NCBI GenBank assembly: GCA_035607055.1
Contig: DATNDC010000129.1
Span: 8,999 to 72,998 of the forward strand
Direction: 5' to 3'
Source: Polyangia bacterium
GTDB taxonomy: Bacteria; Myxococcota_A; Polyangia; Fen-1088
Length of the DNA stretch: 64,000 bases
Below the pieces are notes generated by a model. That model was not told the origin of the DNA. It did not search any database and worked only from the letters and a program-made list of their open reading frames with translations. The position numbers and the translations under genes were made by a program. This document shows, piece after piece, positions 39,451-46,438 of this stretch (positions are counted from its first letter, which is position 1; the number at the start of each line of letters is the position of its first letter).

Positions 39451-40650
39451 CTACTGCGGAGCGGCCGCGGCCTGCAGCGCGGACCGCGTCGACAATTTGC
39501 CCGCCGCCACCTCCGCCGCCAGGGCCGTCAGCTCCGGCAGCGCGGTGCCCGGGTCGGCGGTCGGCGGGCGCACCCCGCCCGGCTTGACGCTGGCGCCGTA
39601 GGTGGTGATGACGAAGATCCGGATGACGTCGGCGCGCTCGGCCGGCAGCGCCCGCGCGTACGCCTCGACGAGATCGCCGATGTCCCTCGGCGGGCGCCCC
39701 TCGAGGACGGCGCGCCCCCAGGCCGAGAGCAGCTTGGCCTGGAAGTTTCGGAAGGGCCCGAGCACGGCGGCCGGGCTGACGCCCTCGGGGATCCGGTCGG
39801 TGACGAACGGCGCGTAGACCTCGGCCGGCGCCACCTTGCGGCCGACCGCCTTCGACTGCGCCAGCCGGTAGAGGACGGTCGCCGCCACGCCGGGATCCTC
39901 CAGCAGGTCCGCGGCGGCCCGCGGCGCGCCATCGGCGCCGAGGACGTACTTGTTCTCGCGGACGCCGGCGAACAGCTCGCGCTGCGTGCTGGTGCCCGCG
40001 CTGGCCGGCAGCGTGCCGGCCGGCCCCTCCCCCATCCGCCATTCGCGGGCGATCACCTCCAGCGCCTCGGCGTAGCCCTCCAGCAAGGGGCGCGGGGGCG
40101 GCGTCGCGGCGCCGGCGGCCACGCGCGCGGCGGCGGCGTACCCGATGAGCCCGGCGAGGGTCTGCGGCAGCGCCCGATCCTGGTCGGGGTAGGCCGGGAG
40201 CGCCAGCCAACCGACCTCGGGATGCTCGTCGACCCCACCGAAGGTCCCCTTGAGCGCCAGCCCCCGGCCCATCTTGGCGCCCACGGGGCCTCCCACCACG
40301 AACGCGGTCGGCTGGGCGGCGGCGGCGCGGGCGTCGTCGGGATAGCGCTTCCCGCCGACGTTCGCCTCACGCACCAGCTGCTTGGCGAGGTAGTCGGTCC
40401 GCAGCACCTCGCTGGCGAACCCGAGGTTGAGCTGGCGGTAGAGCGGCTCGGCGCGCGGATCGTCGGCGGCCACCGAAGCCACCAGCGGCAGCCCGGCCGG
40501 GCTCCGGGGCGCCCCCTCGACCGGCGCGTAGACGACGAACGAATCCGGCAGGCCGAGCGCGTGATCGCGATGGCAACCGCCGGACCCCAGCACCAGCAGC
40601 GTCAGACCGAGCGCCCCCAGGCGCGGGGCGCCCGTCGATCGCACTGTCAT
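39451..40650 (-). CDS. Hypothetical lipoprotein (399 aa)
   Basis: MTVRSTGAPRLGALGLTLLVLGSGGC lipobox. No recognisable catalytic motif. The start overlaps the response-regulator stop (ATGA). Confidence 0.6.
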   Translation of the reverse strand: MTVRSTGAPRLGALGLTLLVLGSGGCHRDHALGLPDSFVVYAPVEGAPRSPAGLPLVASVAADDPRAEPLYRQLNLGFASEVLRTDYLAKQLVREANVGGKRYPDDARAAAAQPTAFVVGGPVGAKMGRGLALKGTFGGVDEHPEVGWLALPAYPDQDRALPQTLAGLIGYAAAARVAAGAATPPPRPLLEGYAEALEVIAREWRMGEGPAGTLPASAGTSTQRELFAGVRENKYVLGADGAPRAAADLLEDPGVAATVLYRLAQSKAVGRKVAPAEVYAPFVTDRIPEGVSPAAVLGPFRNFQAKLLSAWGRAVLEGRPPRDIGDLVEAYARALPAERADVIRIFVITTYGASVKPGGVRPPTADPGTALPELTALAAEVAAGKLSTRSALQAAAAPQ

Positions 40651-41081
40651 TGGAACCGGGCCGACTCGGCCGGTTCACAGTAGCGTTGCAGGAGCCGCGT
40701 CAGCGCGTCGAAGTCGACCGGCTTGTAGAGCACGGTGACCTCCTCGCGCACGCCGATCATCTGGTCGTTGGCCGCCGTCATGATCACCCGCGGGATCGAG
40801 GCGAGCTTCGGCGACTTCTTGATGACCTTCAAGAGCTCGACCCCGTTCATCTCGGGCATGAACAGGTCGATGAGCATGAGCGCCGGAACCTCGACCTCCA
40901 GCAGCGAGAGCGCTTCTCGGCCGTTCGACGCGCAGAGCGCCCGGTAGCCGCTGTCCTCGACCACGTCGTTGATCGTCAGCGCCACGTCGCGGTCGTCTTC
41001 GACGATCAGCACCGCGGGACGGCGCGGCGGCAGGGTCGAGCCGGGTCCGGCTGACGACGTTTTGGTGGGCATCGGGTTCAC
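40647..41081 (-). CDS. Single-domain response regulator (CheY-like receiver)
   Basis: GTG start. VLIVEDDRDV, phospho-acceptor context LMLIDLFMPEMNG, and conserved T/K region (VIMTAAND..YKP). Confidence 0.88.
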   Translation of the reverse strand: MNPMPTKTSSAGPGSTLPPRRPAVLIVEDDRDVALTINDVVEDSGYRALCASNGREALSLLEVEVPALMLIDLFMPEMNGVELLKVIKKSPKLASIPRVIMTAANDQMIGVREEVTVLYKPVDFDALTRLLQRYCEPAESARFQ

Positions 41082-41153
41082 GTGGTCGCTTCGTGGTCTC
41101 TATAGATCCGAGATCGACATGGATCAATCCTCCCGATCGCAAAAGCTGAAGCG

Positions 41154-41227
<74 letters not shown>

Positions 41228-41416: not shown

Positions 41417-42016
41417 ATGTCTAGGGGAGACAAACGGTGGATCGTCGCCGGCTCGCTCGCCGCACTGGCGGGGGGGGGCTGGCTCGCGATCCACGAGCGG
41501 CCCGGTGCCAGGCGGCACACCGCCACGGCTGATCGCGTCCCCGGGGACGGTTTTCAGGGGTTCTCGTCACGTCCGTTCTCGGGGGTCGGCGCCGCCCCGG
41601 CGGCGCCGGAGACCCCGGAGATGATTGCCCACGAGGTCGACGGCGTGATGGGGCGCTGGCGGACCGCCATCCTGGTCAAGGATGCTCCGACGGTCGTGGC
41701 GCTCGACCTGACCTTCCGGCAGCAGCCCGAGCGGTTCACGGCGGCGCTCGAGAAGAGCGCCGAGGCCGAGGAGAACGAACGGGTGCGGGCGTTCTCGACC
41801 CGGGTCCTCGGGAAGCTGAAGAACGCGGCCCTTGCCCCGCTCTACCGGCGCCTGCTGTCGGACAAGAGCCCCTATGTGCGCCAGAACGCCGCCTGGGCGC
41901 TGGGCGAGCTGGGCGCGGCCGCGGCGCCTGCGCTCGCCGAGCTGCAGACGGCGAGCACGAAAGATCCGGCCAACGACGTCCGCGCCGCCGCGCGCGACGC
42001 GCTCGGAAAGCTTTGA
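41417..42016 (+). CDS. HEAT-repeat protein with N-terminal membrane anchor
   Basis: WIVAGSLAALAGGGWLAI anchor. HEAT/PBS repeats: ENERVRAFSTRVLGKL, SPYVRQNAAWALGELG, ANDVRAAARDALGKL. Confidence 0.65.
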   Translation: MSRGDKRWIVAGSLAALAGGGWLAIHERPGARRHTATADRVPGDGFQGFSSRPFSGVGAAPAAPETPEMIAHEVDGVMGRWRTAILVKDAPTVVALDLTFRQQPERFTAALEKSAEAEENERVRAFSTRVLGKLKNAALAPLYRRLLSDKSPYVRQNAAWALGELGAAAAPALAELQTASTKDPANDVRAAARDALGKL

Positions 42017-42037
42017 GCAGAGAGAACGGAAGGAATC

Positions 42038-42196
42038 GTGGCTGACAAATCCAAACGAAAGTCGGCTCGGCCCGCCAAGAAGGCGTGGCAGAAGCCGCGC
42101 ATCAAGAGCGGACGGCTGTTCGAATCGAACAGCCTCGCCTGTGGGAAGAACGGCCCGGGCATGGACTCCTGCGAGCAGTTCCCGAAGATGTCATGA
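42038..42196 (+). CDS. Candidate RiPP precursor peptide (52 aa), unannotated in ORF track
   Basis: GTG 42038 lies 3-4 nt after GGAAGGA. Product is (M)ADKSKRKSARPAKKAWQKPRIKSGRLFESNSLACGKNGPGMDSCEQFPKMS. The stop overlaps the next gene's ATG (ATGA). G/C-rich third positions. Confidence 0.5.
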   Translation: MADKSKRKSARPAKKAWQKPRIKSGRLFESNSLACGKNGPGMDSCEQFPKMS

Positions 42197-43512
42197 GTGA
42201 TGTCATGAGCGCGCGCCCTCCCTCCTCTTCCTCTTCCGAGAAGCTGACCCTCTCGATCGGCGGCCTGGTGGGCGAGCTCGCGCTCGTCGGCGCCCCGCCG
42301 GTCTTCCTCGAGCAGGTGCGAGCTCGGTACGGCGCCTTCGCGCTGCCGGCGGTCGGCCACGCGGCGCCCGACTTCGTGCTCCGGTTGAAGCTGGATCCCC
42401 TCCCCCCGCCGGGCGGCTCGCCGGGCAAGCGCCTGGCCGAGACGGAGGCGCGCCCGCTCGAGGTCACGGTCCGCGGGAACGCCGTGTCGGTCCAGCGGTG
42501 GGATCTGGGGGTGCGCTTGCGCGGCCGCGGCGCGGGCTACCGCGGCGAAGGCCACTGCGAGGCGAGCCCGTTTGCGCTGGACTGCGTCCTGCGGGTGCTG
42601 TTCGCGACCCTGCTCCCCCGCGTGGGCGGGATGCTGATTCATGGCTGTGGGCTGCGGCACGCGGCCGTGGGCGTGATCTTCCCCGGCGTGAGCGGCTCCG
42701 GCAAGACGACGCTGGCCCGCAAGGCCCCCGACGCGGACGACGTCCTGTCGGACGAGATCGTGGCGGTCCGACGGCTCGACGACGGCTGGCGCGTGTTCGG
42801 AACGCCCTTCTGGGGGGACTTCGCGCGCGGCGGGATCTCGATGCGCAGCTGGCCGCTGCGCGCGGTGGGCTTCCTGCACCAGGCGCGCGAGGTGGCGATG
42901 ACGCCGATCACCTCGTCGGACGCGACGCTGCGGCTGCTCGGTTGCTTCCTGGCCTTCGCCACCGACCGCGCGTCGGTCGAGCGCAACCTGGCGGTGGCGG
43001 TCCAGCTCTGCGCCGAGGTCCGCTCGGTGGAGGCGAGCCTGACGCGGGCCGCGCCGACGGCGGCGGTGTTCCGCAAGCTCGGGCCGCACCTCGGTCCCGA
43101 GGTGACGCGCAAGGTGCCGCCGGCCAACGCCCGCGAGCTCATCTCGGAGTTCCGCGCGCTCCTGCGCAAGCAGCAGTCGTACACCTTCCGCCCGCGCGCG
43201 GGCGGCGCCGAGGGCTGGCTCAAGAGCGGCGAGGCGCTGGCCGTGGAGCCGCCCGGCGTGGGGGCGCCGCTTTCGCCCGGTGACATCATCCTGGCCTGGA
43301 TCCCCGGGGCCTCGCCCGACGAGGACGCCCTCGCCTGCCGGCGCCTCACGGCGGCGACCGCCCGGGCCGCGGGCGGCGGCGAGCTCCTCGGCCGCGTGAC
43401 GCTGGTCTGCCGCGACGGCAAGCGGCAGCCGCTGCCCGGCCGGGTCGGCGATCTGGCCCGCAGCTTCGGCCCGCTGGTGGCCCTCCCCATGCTCAAGATG
43501 GCCGGACGATGA
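42193..43512 (+). CDS. HPr kinase/phosphorylase-like protein (HprK-related, RiPP-associated)
   Basis: Start set at ATG 42193. The central segment MLIHGCGLRHAAVGVIFPGVSGSGKTTLARK..DDVLSDEIVAV matches the HprK catalytic core (HG..VGVLI.G.SG.GKS...DD). It carries extra N-terminal (~170 aa) and C-terminal (~110 aa) regions. Confidence 0.75.
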   Translation: MSDVMSARPPSSSSSEKLTLSIGGLVGELALVGAPPVFLEQVRARYGAFALPAVGHAAPDFVLRLKLDPLPPPGGSPGKRLAETEARPLEVTVRGNAVSVQRWDLGVRLRGRGAGYRGEGHCEASPFALDCVLRVLFATLLPRVGGMLIHGCGLRHAAVGVIFPGVSGSGKTTLARKAPDADDVLSDEIVAVRRLDDGWRVFGTPFWGDFARGGISMRSWPLRAVGFLHQAREVAMTPITSSDATLRLLGCFLAFATDRASVERNLAVAVQLCAEVRSVEASLTRAAPTAAVFRKLGPHLGPEVTRKVPPANARELISEFRALLRKQQSYTFRPRAGGAEGWLKSGEALAVEPPGVGAPLSPGDIILAWIPGASPDEDALACRRLTAATARAAGGGELLGRVTLVCRDGKRQPLPGRVGDLARSFGPLVALPMLKMAGR

Positions 43513-44990: not shown

Positions 44991-45494
44991 ATGCCCGCCC
45001 TGACCCCGGTCGTCGAGATCAAACGCACGCTCGCCGGCGGCGAGAAGCGGTTCGAGTGCCTGCGCCTGGCGGGGAACGCGACGCACGCGGTGCTGCTCTG
45101 GATCGCGCGCGCGCCGATGCACGTGCACGGCGTCGACCTCCCCACGGGGACGGTCAGCTTCGGCCACTTCTGGACCGACCGGTTCTTCAACGTGTACCAC
45201 TGGCTCGACGCCGAGCGCCGGACGATGGGCTACTACTTCAACATCGCCGACCGGACGCGGATCGCGACGGCTGAGCTCGAGTGGCGCGATCTGGTGGTCG
45301 ACGTGCTGGCGACGCCGGCCGGCCGGCTGGACGTCCTCGACGAGGACGAGCTCCCCGAGGTGGTCGAGCCCGAGGCGGCGGCCCACATCGCCGCCGGAAA
45401 GGCCGCGGTGCTGGGCGCGCTGCCGGCCATCAGCGCCGAAGTCGAGGCCGCCTCGCGGGCGCTCTTCCCGCTGGTCTTTCCGACGCCTGGCTAG
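44991..45494 (+). CDS. DUF402-like protein (FomD / nucleoside di-/tri-phosphatase-related fold)
   Basis: FGHFWTDRFFNVYHWLDAERRTMGYYFNIADRTRIATAELEWRDLVVDVLATPAGRLDVLDEDEL resembles the DUF402 core. It lies 48 nt after the rSAM gene on the same strand. Confidence 0.6.
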   Translation: MPALTPVVEIKRTLAGGEKRFECLRLAGNATHAVLLWIARAPMHVHGVDLPTGTVSFGHFWTDRFFNVYHWLDAERRTMGYYFNIADRTRIATAELEWRDLVVDVLATPAGRLDVLDEDELPEVVEPEAAAHIAAGKAAVLGALPAISAEVEAASRALFPLVFPTPG

Positions 45495-46438
45495 GAGGTC
45501 GGCAGCTCGACGGTGACCGGCTGGCGGGCGATCGCCCGCAGCGAGAACGCCGCTACGAGCGCGGCGGCCGACGCGGGGCGTCCGGCCGGGAGCAGGCCCG
45601 CCGAGGCGGCCAGCTCGCCCAGCACGGCCTCCGGCGCGACGCCGCCGGCCCGGAGCGCGGCCAGCGTCGCCGGCCGGGTCCGCTTGGCCAGCCGCTCGCC
45701 CCCCGGCGCCAGCACCAGCGGCACGTGGGCGAAGACCGGCGGCGTCAGGTCGAGCGCCCGGTAGAGGGCGATCTGGCGGGGCGTCGAGCGCAGAAGATCG
45801 TCGCCGCGCACGACGCGCGTGACCGCCATCGCCGCGTCGTCGACGACCACCGCGAGCTGGTAGGCCGCCGTCCCGTCGGCGCGGCGGAGGACGAAGTCGT
45901 CGACGCCGCCCGCCTCGGCGGCGAGCGCGCCGTGGACCTCGTCGACGAAGTCGATCCGCTCGCCCCGCCCGGCGAACCGGACCGCGGGCGCCCTCCCCTG
46001 CGCCGCCGCGCGGGCCGCGACGGCCGCCGGGTCGGTGTCGCGGCAGGTCCCCGGATAGCGCGGCTCCTGCTCGTCGTGAGGCGCACTGGCGGCGCGGGCG
46101 ACGTCGGCCCGCGAGCAGGCGCAGAGGAACGCCCGCCCGGCTGCCAGCAGGCGCTCGATCGCGGCGTCGTAGGCGGCGGTTCGCTCGCTCTGCCGGTACG
46201 GGGCGTGAGGGCCGCCTCGGTCGGGACCTTCGTCCCAATCGAGCCCCAGCCAGTGGAGCTCGTCGAGTTGCTGGGCTTCCGCGCCCGGTTGCACACGCGC
46301 GCGGTCGAGGTCTTCGATCCGCATCAGGAAGGCGCCGCCGGCCGCTCGGGCGTCGAGCCAGGCGAAAAGCGCGGTCCGCGCGTTTCCGAGGTGGAGCTGG
46401 CCGGTGGGGCTGGGGGCGAAGCGGCCGCGAACGACCAT
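45491..46438 (-). CDS. gluQ: Glutamyl-Q tRNA(Asp) synthetase
   Basis: RFAPSPTGQLHLGNARTALFAWL (HIGH-type), IEDLD, and a KLAKR-type loop. At 315 aa it lacks an anticodon-binding domain, as expected for GluQRS. Confidence 0.88.
   Translation of the reverse strand: MVVRGRFAPSPTGQLHLGNARTALFAWLDARAAGGAFLMRIEDLDRARVQPGAEAQQLDELHWLGLDWDEGPDRGGPHAPYRQSERTAAYDAAIERLLAAGRAFLCACSRADVARAASAPHDEQEPRYPGTCRDTDPAAVAARAAAQGRAPAVRFAGRGERIDFVDEVHGALAAEAGGVDDFVLRRADGTAAYQLAVVVDDAAMAVTRVVRGDDLLRSTPRQIALYRALDLTPPVFAHVPLVLAPGGERLAKRTRPATLAALRAGGVAPEAVLGELAASAGLLPAGRPASAAALVAAFSLRAIARQPVTVELPTS

Follow-up and report, generated by a model that had tools for sequence, protein, structure and literature searches.

The DNA analysed here is a 64,000-nucleotide stretch of a Polyangia bacterium genome (contig DATNDC010000129.1; below, the window). 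In it we looked at a 52-codon open reading frame (ORF), at 42038-42196 on the + strand, as the candidate precursor gene of a peptide made on the ribosome and modified after translation (RiPP). The ORF is part of a compact + strand operon (41.4-45.5 kb) in which a HEAT-repeat gene is followed by the peptide, a P-loop protein of the ScmC family, a PqqD-family protein, a radical S-adenosylmethionine (radical SAM) enzyme with a SPASM domain and a DUF402 protein (Table 1). The peptide, ScmC-like, PqqD and radical SAM genes are close-packed on one strand, and both the peptide/ScmC-like and the ScmC-like/PqqD junctions are ATGA overlaps.

Translation of the ORF gives V/M-ADKSKRKSARPAKKAWQKPRIKSGRLFESNSLACGKNGPGMDSCEQFPKMS, followed by the stop. 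The GTG start lies 3 nt after a GGAAGGA element, and in homologous loci purine-rich GGA, GGAG or AAGGA stands ahead of the aligned start. Cys35 is encoded by TGT (42140-42142), Cys45 by TGC (42170-42172) and Ser52 by TCA (42191-42193), directly before the TGA stop (42194-42196), which overlaps the ATG of the next gene (42193-42195). Residues 1-26 contain 11 Lys or Arg, and the N-terminal half has no Cys and no acidic residue after Asp3. The initial annotation of this stretch had described the same product, the basic N-terminal half, the two Cys, the terminal Ser, a GTG 3-4 nt after GGAAGGA and a stop fused to the kinase start, and all of these were read back exactly. It had also called the ORF unannotated, which is true of the ORF track with its 60-aa limit but not of NCBI metagenome-assembled genomes (MAGs) of Polyangia, some of which carry homologues as 'hypothetical protein' (for example VKZ18_02230, directly before the kinase-like VKZ18_02235).

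The GC content of the ORF is 0.81 at third codon positions, 0.49 at first and 0.53 at second positions, which is a coding-like pattern for this genome. Two further ORFs, 41872-43089 (-) and 41832-42200 (+), overlap the peptide and kinase-like genes; by their GC-by-codon-position pattern they are shadow frames of high-GC DNA and not genes. Small ORFs are common in this DNA of ~70% GC, with 95 ORFs of at least 40 aa overlapping the 14 kb between 36 and 50 kb, and therefore the peptide ORF taken alone does not stand above chance. It is the conservation of the ORF that lifts it above chance.

Table 1. Positions of the peptide gene, its parts and the surrounding genes in the window
Feature	Position	Strand	Basis or remark
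Response-regulator gene	40647..41081	-	
tRNA-Arg (anticodon CCT)	41153..41227	-	Between response-regulator gene and HEAT gene
HEAT-repeat protein, 199 aa	41417..42016	+	First operon gene; PF13646 HEAT_2 6.5e-15
Shine-Dalgarno-like GGAAGGA	42028..42034	+	3 nt 5' of GTG; direct sequence reading
Predicted precursor peptide gene	42038..42196	+	52 aa plus stop; GTG start, TGA stop
Leader motif W17-Q-K-P20-R-I22	42086..42103	+	Fits [Y/W]xxPx[L/V/I/A/F/Y]
F28-E29-S30-N-S32-L33-A34-C35-G36-K37	42119..42148	+	Most conserved block; invariant columns; pN/pS of G25-K37
Putative 18-residue core C35...C45...S52 (C-x9-C-x6-S)	42140..42193	+	Family spacing statistics; Cys45/Ser52 unchanged
P-loop protein, 439 aa	42193..43512	+	
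ScmC-family P-loop domain (HprK-related, kinase-like), residues 1 to ~295	42193..43077	+	Precomputed Pfam PF27840 (ScmC)
Fused C-terminal S24/archaeal-type signal-peptidase-I-like domain	43150..43509	+	hhalign vs stand-alone S24-like peptidases
PqqD-family RiPP recognition element, 89 aa	43509..43778	+	Start overlaps previous stop (ATGA); PF05402 7.5e-18
Radical SAM/SPASM enzyme, 387 aa	43780..44943	+	PF04055 2.6e-18; PF13186 SPASM 1.8e-10
DUF402 protein	44991..45494	+	PF04167 1.1e-13; neighbour, loosely linked to cassette
GluQRS	45491..46438	-	Convergent; 4-nt overlap with DUF402 end; downstream operon boundary

Conservation of the peptide gene

Species-representative genomes were scanned with a profile of the neighbouring P-loop protein, which gave 54 loci, 40 of them from Polyangia/Myxococcota. 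By tblastn, the HEAT, peptide, ScmC-like, PqqD and radical SAM/SPASM genes are collinear in 40/40, and this order persists down to 42% identity of the P-loop protein. A search of this kind, next to HprK-like, PqqD and radical SAM genes of myxobacteria, had been proposed as a check on the ORF, and it found the peptide directly upstream in every one of the 40 loci with both Cys and the terminal Ser kept. A different conserved small ORF at the locus had been named as a possible rival; none accompanies the cassette in the 40 loci. In a protein search the 52-aa peptide matched 40 clusters of 43-66 aa with 64-98% identity and E-values down to 6e-27, all of them nameless or called 'hypothetical protein' in Polyangia MAGs.

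The peptide frame is intact in 41/41 loci, and the start aligns at (V/M)A(D/E)K, with ATG instead of GTG in several of them. Ser is the last residue before the stop in all 41, and the stop mostly overlaps the next start. Third codon positions are ~3 times more variable than the other two. For the stretch W17-S52 (36 codons) the proportion of synonymous differences (pS) is 0.54 and that of nonsynonymous differences (pN) is 0.20 (pN/pS 0.37), and in G25-K37 these values are 0.53 and 0.044 (pN/pS 0.08). Both C45 (pS 0.18) and S52 (pS 0.56, with three codons used) have pN 0 and pN/pS 0. The initial annotation had listed frameshifts, stops and a lack of purifying selection as grounds for giving up the gene, and what these loci hold is the opposite of each.

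One possible option is that the ORF is an untranslated chance frame in GC-rich intergenic DNA or in the 5' untranslated region of the kinase-like gene. The abundance of small ORFs here fits with this, as does a GTG that lies only 3 nt from the Shine-Dalgarno-like element, a short distance. Such a frame would not be expected to stay open in 41/41 loci with the codon-position bias and the selection values given above, to find homologues at E-values as low as those obtained, or to belong to a family present in several phyla; moreover, the only Rfam match lies upstream, at the tRNA-Arg, and no RNA family covers the peptide ORF. The comparison of the loci thus refutes the chance-frame option, to which we give next to no credence, and by the same alignments the 52 codons form a genuine small gene that is strongly conserved and under purifying selection. 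The gene is shorter than common ORF-length cut-offs, which calls for caution with annotations: the protein collection holds 40 clusters of the peptide and more than 277 of the neighbouring enzyme, though homology places the peptide in 40/40 loci.

Peptide architecture and linkage across lineages

When 1.84 billion representative proteins were searched with a profile built from the 41 sequences, 93 clusters at 50% identity were collected, nearly all of 45-76 aa. From these clusters and an alignment of 40 distant members, the family architecture can be written as basic stretch-[W/Y]xxPx(h)xxxx(h)(F/H/Y)E(S/T)xx(A/S)L(A/S)-C-G-K-x7-C-x6-S-stop. Residue statistics were taken from 206 unique sequences, counting positions from the first Cys. 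The last residue is Ser in 195/206 and Thr in 5/206, and the terminal Ser persists also at peptide stops that no downstream gene overlaps. Exactly two Cys are found from the first Cys onward in 194/206. The second Cys lies 10 residues after the first in 162/206 and 7 residues from the C-terminus in 163/206, and the length from the first Cys to the end is 18 residues in 149/206. Around the first Cys there is S/A at -3, L at -2, A/S at -1, G at +1 and Lys at +2 (202/203), preceded by Glu at -6 (205/205) and Phe at -7 (191). The residues between and after the two Cys are variable, and because of this N38, D43 and E46, which had been put forward as Asn/Asp/Glu acceptors, are not conserved in the family.

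The leader motif of the window peptide fits [Y/W]xxPx[L/V/I/A/F/Y], the general motif by which lasso and pyrroloquinoline quinone (PQQ) leaders bind a RiPP recognition element (RRE; PMC13381572). In the alignment of close homologues W17 is invariant and P20 is present in at least 90% of sequences, and in distant members the Y/W and P are invariant or nearly so. The most conserved block begins with FE(S/T), which is common with the leaders of the linear polyphosphorylated peptides (LPP) of Bacillota (PMC13381572, Nat Commun 2026), and continues with the AxA-like site (A/S)L(A/S) and the invariant CGK. The leader had been drawn as ending at R26, which does not hold: W17xxP20xI22...F28E29S30 is conserved as the recognition part and extends past R26. 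As the recognition part reaches S30, the core would start either right behind this Ser, as the LPP case suggests, or behind A34, at the AxA-like site.

Pfam and NCBIfam contain no model that matches the window peptide, and no NCBIfam model matches the 40 distant members. In the open-access literature searched, no paper prints the peptide motifs of the family, and nothing was found on SynChlorMet, on ScmC with radical SAM or on HPr kinase with PqqD and radical SAM. The peptide family is thus widespread, and neither the curated family libraries nor the open-access papers searched describe it.

When metagenomes were scanned with a sub-family alignment, more than 573 stretches matched, from which 80 loci of soil and peat origin (GC ~0.57) were kept. 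In 46/80 of them the peptide is followed by a stand-alone S24/archaeal-type signal-peptidase-I-like protein of 150-170 aa (PF00717 1.5e-6, TIGR02228 1.3e-8), a short ScmC-like protein, PqqD and radical SAM/SPASM. Genomes labelled Eubacteriales, Candidatus Acidoferrum and Dormibacterota have the same peptide type downstream of the radical SAM gene. Two further contigs carry HEAT, peptide, ScmC, S24, PqqD and radical SAM in one case and HEAT, peptide, ScmC, PqqD and radical SAM in the other. In L140 and L141, which have a Por_Secre_tail neighbour, the peptide is followed by a short gene (a weak Peptidase_S24 match in L141) and then a further gene; the contigs of distant members L055-L057 are too short for enzyme context. 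Altogether, the peptide accompanies ScmC, PqqD and radical SAM, often with an S24-like gene and in shuffled order, in at least three further lineages. That the linkage survives shuffling across phyla argues strongly for a joint action of the peptide and the enzymes.

Some of the Acidobacteria-like loci have two peptide paralogues a few kb apart (L064:4961 and 8091; L067:743 (-) and 1401 (+)), identical in the leader and in the CGK/C/S positions and different in the residues between. The soil and peat loci also encode a secreted protein of ~510-610 aa with no Pfam or PDB sequence match, for example L060:8378-10210 (+), and further in L055, L057, L059-L062, L069, L075-L082, L098, L100, L102, L114, L119, L121, L124 and L127. 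Its gene is found just 3' of orphan peptide genes (RecR, peptide, secreted protein in L055 and L060) and also 3' of the radical SAM gene in full cassettes, and it is absent from the window. The mature peptide may have this protein as its partner or target.

At the edges of the operon, the HEAT gene, a conserved accessory gene, lies 5' of the peptide in all 40 Polyangia loci and takes the same place in the non-Polyangia contexts P0197, P0220 and P0189. DUF402 adjoins the radical SAM gene in close relatives; in distant Polyangia (L020, L022, L037 and L039) a ~610-aa minus-strand gene intervenes over 2-4 kb, and because another gene displaces it there, DUF402 was rejected as a cassette member. 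The tRNA-Arg explains a dip in GC at this place and delimits the operon upstream. PADLOC matched no defence system; it picked up only generic radical SAM and HEAT similarity.

The kinase-like protein and the proposed pathway

Against NCBIfam, the P-loop protein matches ScmC with an E-value of 4e-8 (32.9 bits, cut-off 125) and HprK_rel_B at 0.0055, both below cut-off, and there are also sub-threshold matches to HprK-related kinases A/B and PEPCK. Alignment by hhalign of its P-loop domain with stand-alone ScmC-like proteins gave a probability of 99.9. H150, GxSGxGK171T, D187-E188 and GTPFWG are invariant from Polyangia to Armatimonadota; D182-D183 are invariant too. Lasso-pathway kinases of the HprK-like type have a catalytic His-Lys-Asp-Asp motif (PMC9266682), which H150/K171/D187/E188 seem to parallel. 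In Armatimonadota-type loci (L041-L048 and L053) a short ScmC-like gene (~270 aa) lies directly after a conserved 360-aa ORF; with no PqqD, radical SAM or family peptide nearby, these genes were rejected as members of the same system, and the ScmC fold appears to be used there in another context.

The C-terminal ~140 residues of the P-loop protein align with stand-alone S24-like peptidases (hhalign probability 96.7, E 3.4e-10; control 0.1). In the alignment, the window clade reads GAEGW where the catalytic Ser-Met should be and has lost the GD box, and because of these losses the domain can be regarded as a pseudo-peptidase, which probably only binds the peptide. The fused domain of divergent Polyangia keeps G(S/T)SMRPW, CHRM and TKGDA.S, the marks of an active Ser/His signal peptidase, with the Ser-Met, His and GD motifs intact in L017-L019, L025-L027, L029, L031-L034 and L036-L038. 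In an intermediate clade (L020-L023, L039 and L040) only the His is kept. The order ScmC, then S24, in one of the contigs described above suggests that the fused protein arose by the joining of adjacent genes.

PqqD matches TIGR04353, the 'HPr-rel-A system PqqD family peptide chaperone', with 35.1 bits at a cut-off of 35. The radical SAM enzyme has the cluster motif CNIRCLHC (CxxxCxxC) and 7 Cys in its SPASM region. Its best full-length NCBIfam match is MftC (103.6 bits, cut-off 265), with PqqE at 81.2 against 381, and the nearest solved structures are PqqE (6c8v, 8e-12) and SkfB; all its family matches lie below the curated cut-offs.

Based on these data, we consider it probable that the 52-codon ORF is a translated RiPP precursor gene of an operon made of a HEAT protein, the peptide, a putative ScmC-like kinase with a peptidase-like domain, PqqD and radical SAM/SPASM. 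The initial annotation had suggested a precursor peptide, and the 40/40 synteny, the kept Cys/Cys/Ser and the purifying selection support this. In the pathway that we propose, PqqD would bind the leader at W17...I22 and present the peptide to its partner enzymes. The radical SAM/SPASM enzyme would modify the fixed-length core C35-G-K-x7-C45-x6-S52, most likely by a thioether-type cross-link through one or both invariant Cys, a step to which we give a little less than an even chance. The ScmC-family P-loop protein may phosphorylate the invariant C-terminal Ser52, which we hold with the same reserve. In relatives, the S24/signal-peptidase-I-like enzyme would remove the leader after FE(S/T) or after (A/S)L(A/S) before Cys35, and the latter cut would leave an 18-residue core starting with Cys. 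Cleavage in the window lineage, if any, would be done by another protease, the fused domain having no nucleophile.

Several points weigh against this picture. Both the Cys cross-link and the phospho-Ser chemistry on the window peptide are steps that we infer. The kinase assignment comes from the weak ScmC and HprK_rel_B matches given above, and profile searches of the PDB with the P-loop protein returned only generic P-loop and PEPCK matches. An AlphaFold2 (AF2) model of the kinase-like protein, built from 16 sequences, has a predicted local distance difference test score (pLDDT) of 58, with the P-loop region below 50, and Foldseek found nothing in the PDB with E <0.01. A second model, of residues 1-300 and 111 sequences, reached pLDDT 69 and a predicted TM-score (pTM) of 0.73, again with the P-loop region below 50 and with no significant Foldseek match. 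No active leader peptidase was found among the operon proteins of the window, and Pfam and NCBIfam scans of these proteins gave neither an exporter nor an immunity gene. There are just two Cys in the core and, in the 206 family sequences, no evident conserved thioether acceptor; Cys35 and Cys45 could simply form a disulfide. Finally, ~34/80 of the metagenome loci have the peptide gene but no enzymes nearby.

From these points one could argue that the product of the ORF is a small, basic and unmodified protein with a structural or regulatory role beside the neighbouring enzymes, which would act on another substrate. The modifications are indeed a step of reasoning, the orphan copies would then need no enzymes, and a catalytically dead peptidase domain is what one would see in the window. 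Yet the peptide has the exact leader motif recognised by PqqD-type RREs, the cassette has no other conserved small ORF in the 40 loci, and the association outlasts gene-order shuffling across phyla. A variable tail in which two Cys and the terminal Ser are invariant and fixed in their spacing is also typical of modification sites, and we regard an unmodified partner as very improbable.

Another question that is raised by these data is the role of the product. The peptide could give rise to a cofactor or prosthetic group, as in PQQ, mycofactocin and the cross-linked subunit QhpC, which would serve within the cell or in a partner protein and not be secreted as a bioactive natural product. This would agree with the very high conservation, the fixed-length core, the single copy in the window and an operon free of exporter and immunity genes. 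The radical SAM enzyme is nearest to MftC, PqqE and AhbD-type enzymes, the HEAT protein is a constant partner in Polyangia, the 510-610-aa secreted protein stands beside orphan peptides and full cassettes in soil and peat, and the invariant C-terminal residue can be likened to that of MftA. On the other side, the radical SAM family matches are far below curated cut-offs, the peptide has neither the E-x3-Y of PqqA nor the C-terminal VY signature of MftA, and the window has yielded no candidate for a cofactor-dependent enzyme. The signal-peptidase-like leader protease and the paralogues with variable residues between the Cys rather resemble a RiPP product family. On balance, a cofactor precursor seems unlikely to us, but as for what the product does, a cofactor-like or partner-bound function is to be taken seriously as an alternative and is compatible with the precursor reading; candidate partners would then be the HEAT protein in Polyangia and the 510-610-aa secreted protein in Acidobacteria-like genomes.

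Going further with the RiPP precursor, the system may represent an undescribed RiPP class: a ~18-residue Cys-x9-Cys-x6-Ser peptide with a radical-SAM cross-link and a C-terminal (poly)phospho-serine, maybe a cofactor or ligand for dedicated partner proteins rather than an antibiotic, and the missing substrate type of ScmC-family cassettes. We offer this full picture as a speculation that is more doubtful than either of its two chemical steps. The ORF supplies a likely substrate for ScmC/PqqD/radical SAM-SPASM cassettes, for which Pfam and NCBIfam as searched, and the open-access literature searched, give no precursor family. With three obvious modification sites in this candidate substrate (Cys35, Cys45 and Ser52), the pathway is now testable.

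Comparison with known systems

With sactipeptides and ranthipeptides the system shares a radical SAM/SPASM enzyme, an RRE and a Cys-containing core. It differs in the two Cys at fixed spacing with no conserved acceptor pattern and in an RRE that is discrete and not fused; no curated sactipeptide or ranthipeptide maturase model matched the window radical SAM enzyme above cut-off. The likeness to PQQ and mycofactocin biosynthesis (PqqA/D/E; MftA/B/C) lies in a short conserved peptide, a PqqD-type chaperone, a PqqE/MftC-like radical SAM/SPASM enzyme and a [W/Y]xxP leader. The extreme C-terminus matters in MftA, as it does in the window family. In contrast to these pathways, the window cassette has kinase-like and peptidase-like parts and no other pqq or mft genes.

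The SynChlorMet (SCM) system (TIGR04248-04251) is close in gene content, as the P-loop protein is a member of Pfam ScmC (PF27840) and both combine ScmC with a PqqD homologue and radical SAM/SPASM. The NCBIfam scores for ScmC, ScmD, ScmE and ScmF are far below their cut-offs (32.9/125, 17.3/100, 90.3/400 and 66.6/400), and family membership at Pfam level exists for ScmC alone. The window cassette has one radical SAM gene where SCM has two, and in addition an S24-like domain, a HEAT protein and an identified precursor; to our knowledge, no precursor has been described for SCM.

In lasso pathways, HprK-like kinases act on the precursor while it still bears its leader and phosphorylate the hydroxyl of a C-terminal Ser that is strictly conserved (PMC9266682). 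Paeninodin-type lasso peptides (with the kinases PadeK, ThcoK, SyanK and PsmK) share with the window system the conserved C-terminal Ser, a WxxP leader and a PqqD-like B1 RRE (PMC9266682). The window operon differs in having radical SAM/SPASM instead, with a kinase-like protein that matches HprK-related models weakly, and no lasso cyclase or B2 cysteine peptidase match was found among the operon proteins by Pfam and NCBIfam.

The LPP pathway uses an RRE, an HprK-like kinase and a signal-peptidase-I (SpI)-like peptidase; the kinase polyphosphorylates a core Ser, with the RRE handing the leader to the peptidase (PMC13381572). LPP leaders follow YxxPxVLxHQxIxFET, and Tyr at -16 places the cleavage after FET (PMC13381572). 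In both systems the leader has [Y/W]xxPx(h) and then (h)FE(T/S), and Ser is the expected phosphorylation target. The extended motif YxxPxVLxHQxIxFETxxS is matched only in part (WxxPxI...LFES), with Leu as the equivalent of core position +3, and the spacer from P to FE(S/T) is 7 residues in the window peptide (P20 to F28) compared with 9 in the LPP consensus (P4 to F14). The window cassette has radical SAM/SPASM and an extra HEAT protein, and it has neither an NTP-transferase nor an MsbA-like exporter. Its core has a short, fixed length and ends in an invariant Ser, with both Cys invariant as well, whereas the LPP C-terminus is variable and the phospho-Ser is at core position 3. The SpI-type peptidase of the window is fused to the P-loop protein and degenerate, hence inactive; divergent Polyangia have an intact version, and other phyla encode it as a gene of its own.

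RiPP logic, PqqD elements, radical SAM/SPASM maturases and HprK-like RiPP kinases are already known, and ScmC cassettes are catalogued in Pfam and NCBIfam. New in relation to the resources searched are the precursor family and the combination of radical SAM/SPASM with ScmC and a signal-peptidase-like protease. The system would link a radical SAM pathway to the LPP logic of RRE, HprK-like kinase and signal-peptidase-like protease, and this logic would then reach beyond Bacillota, to Myxococcota, Acidobacteriota, Dormibacterota and others.

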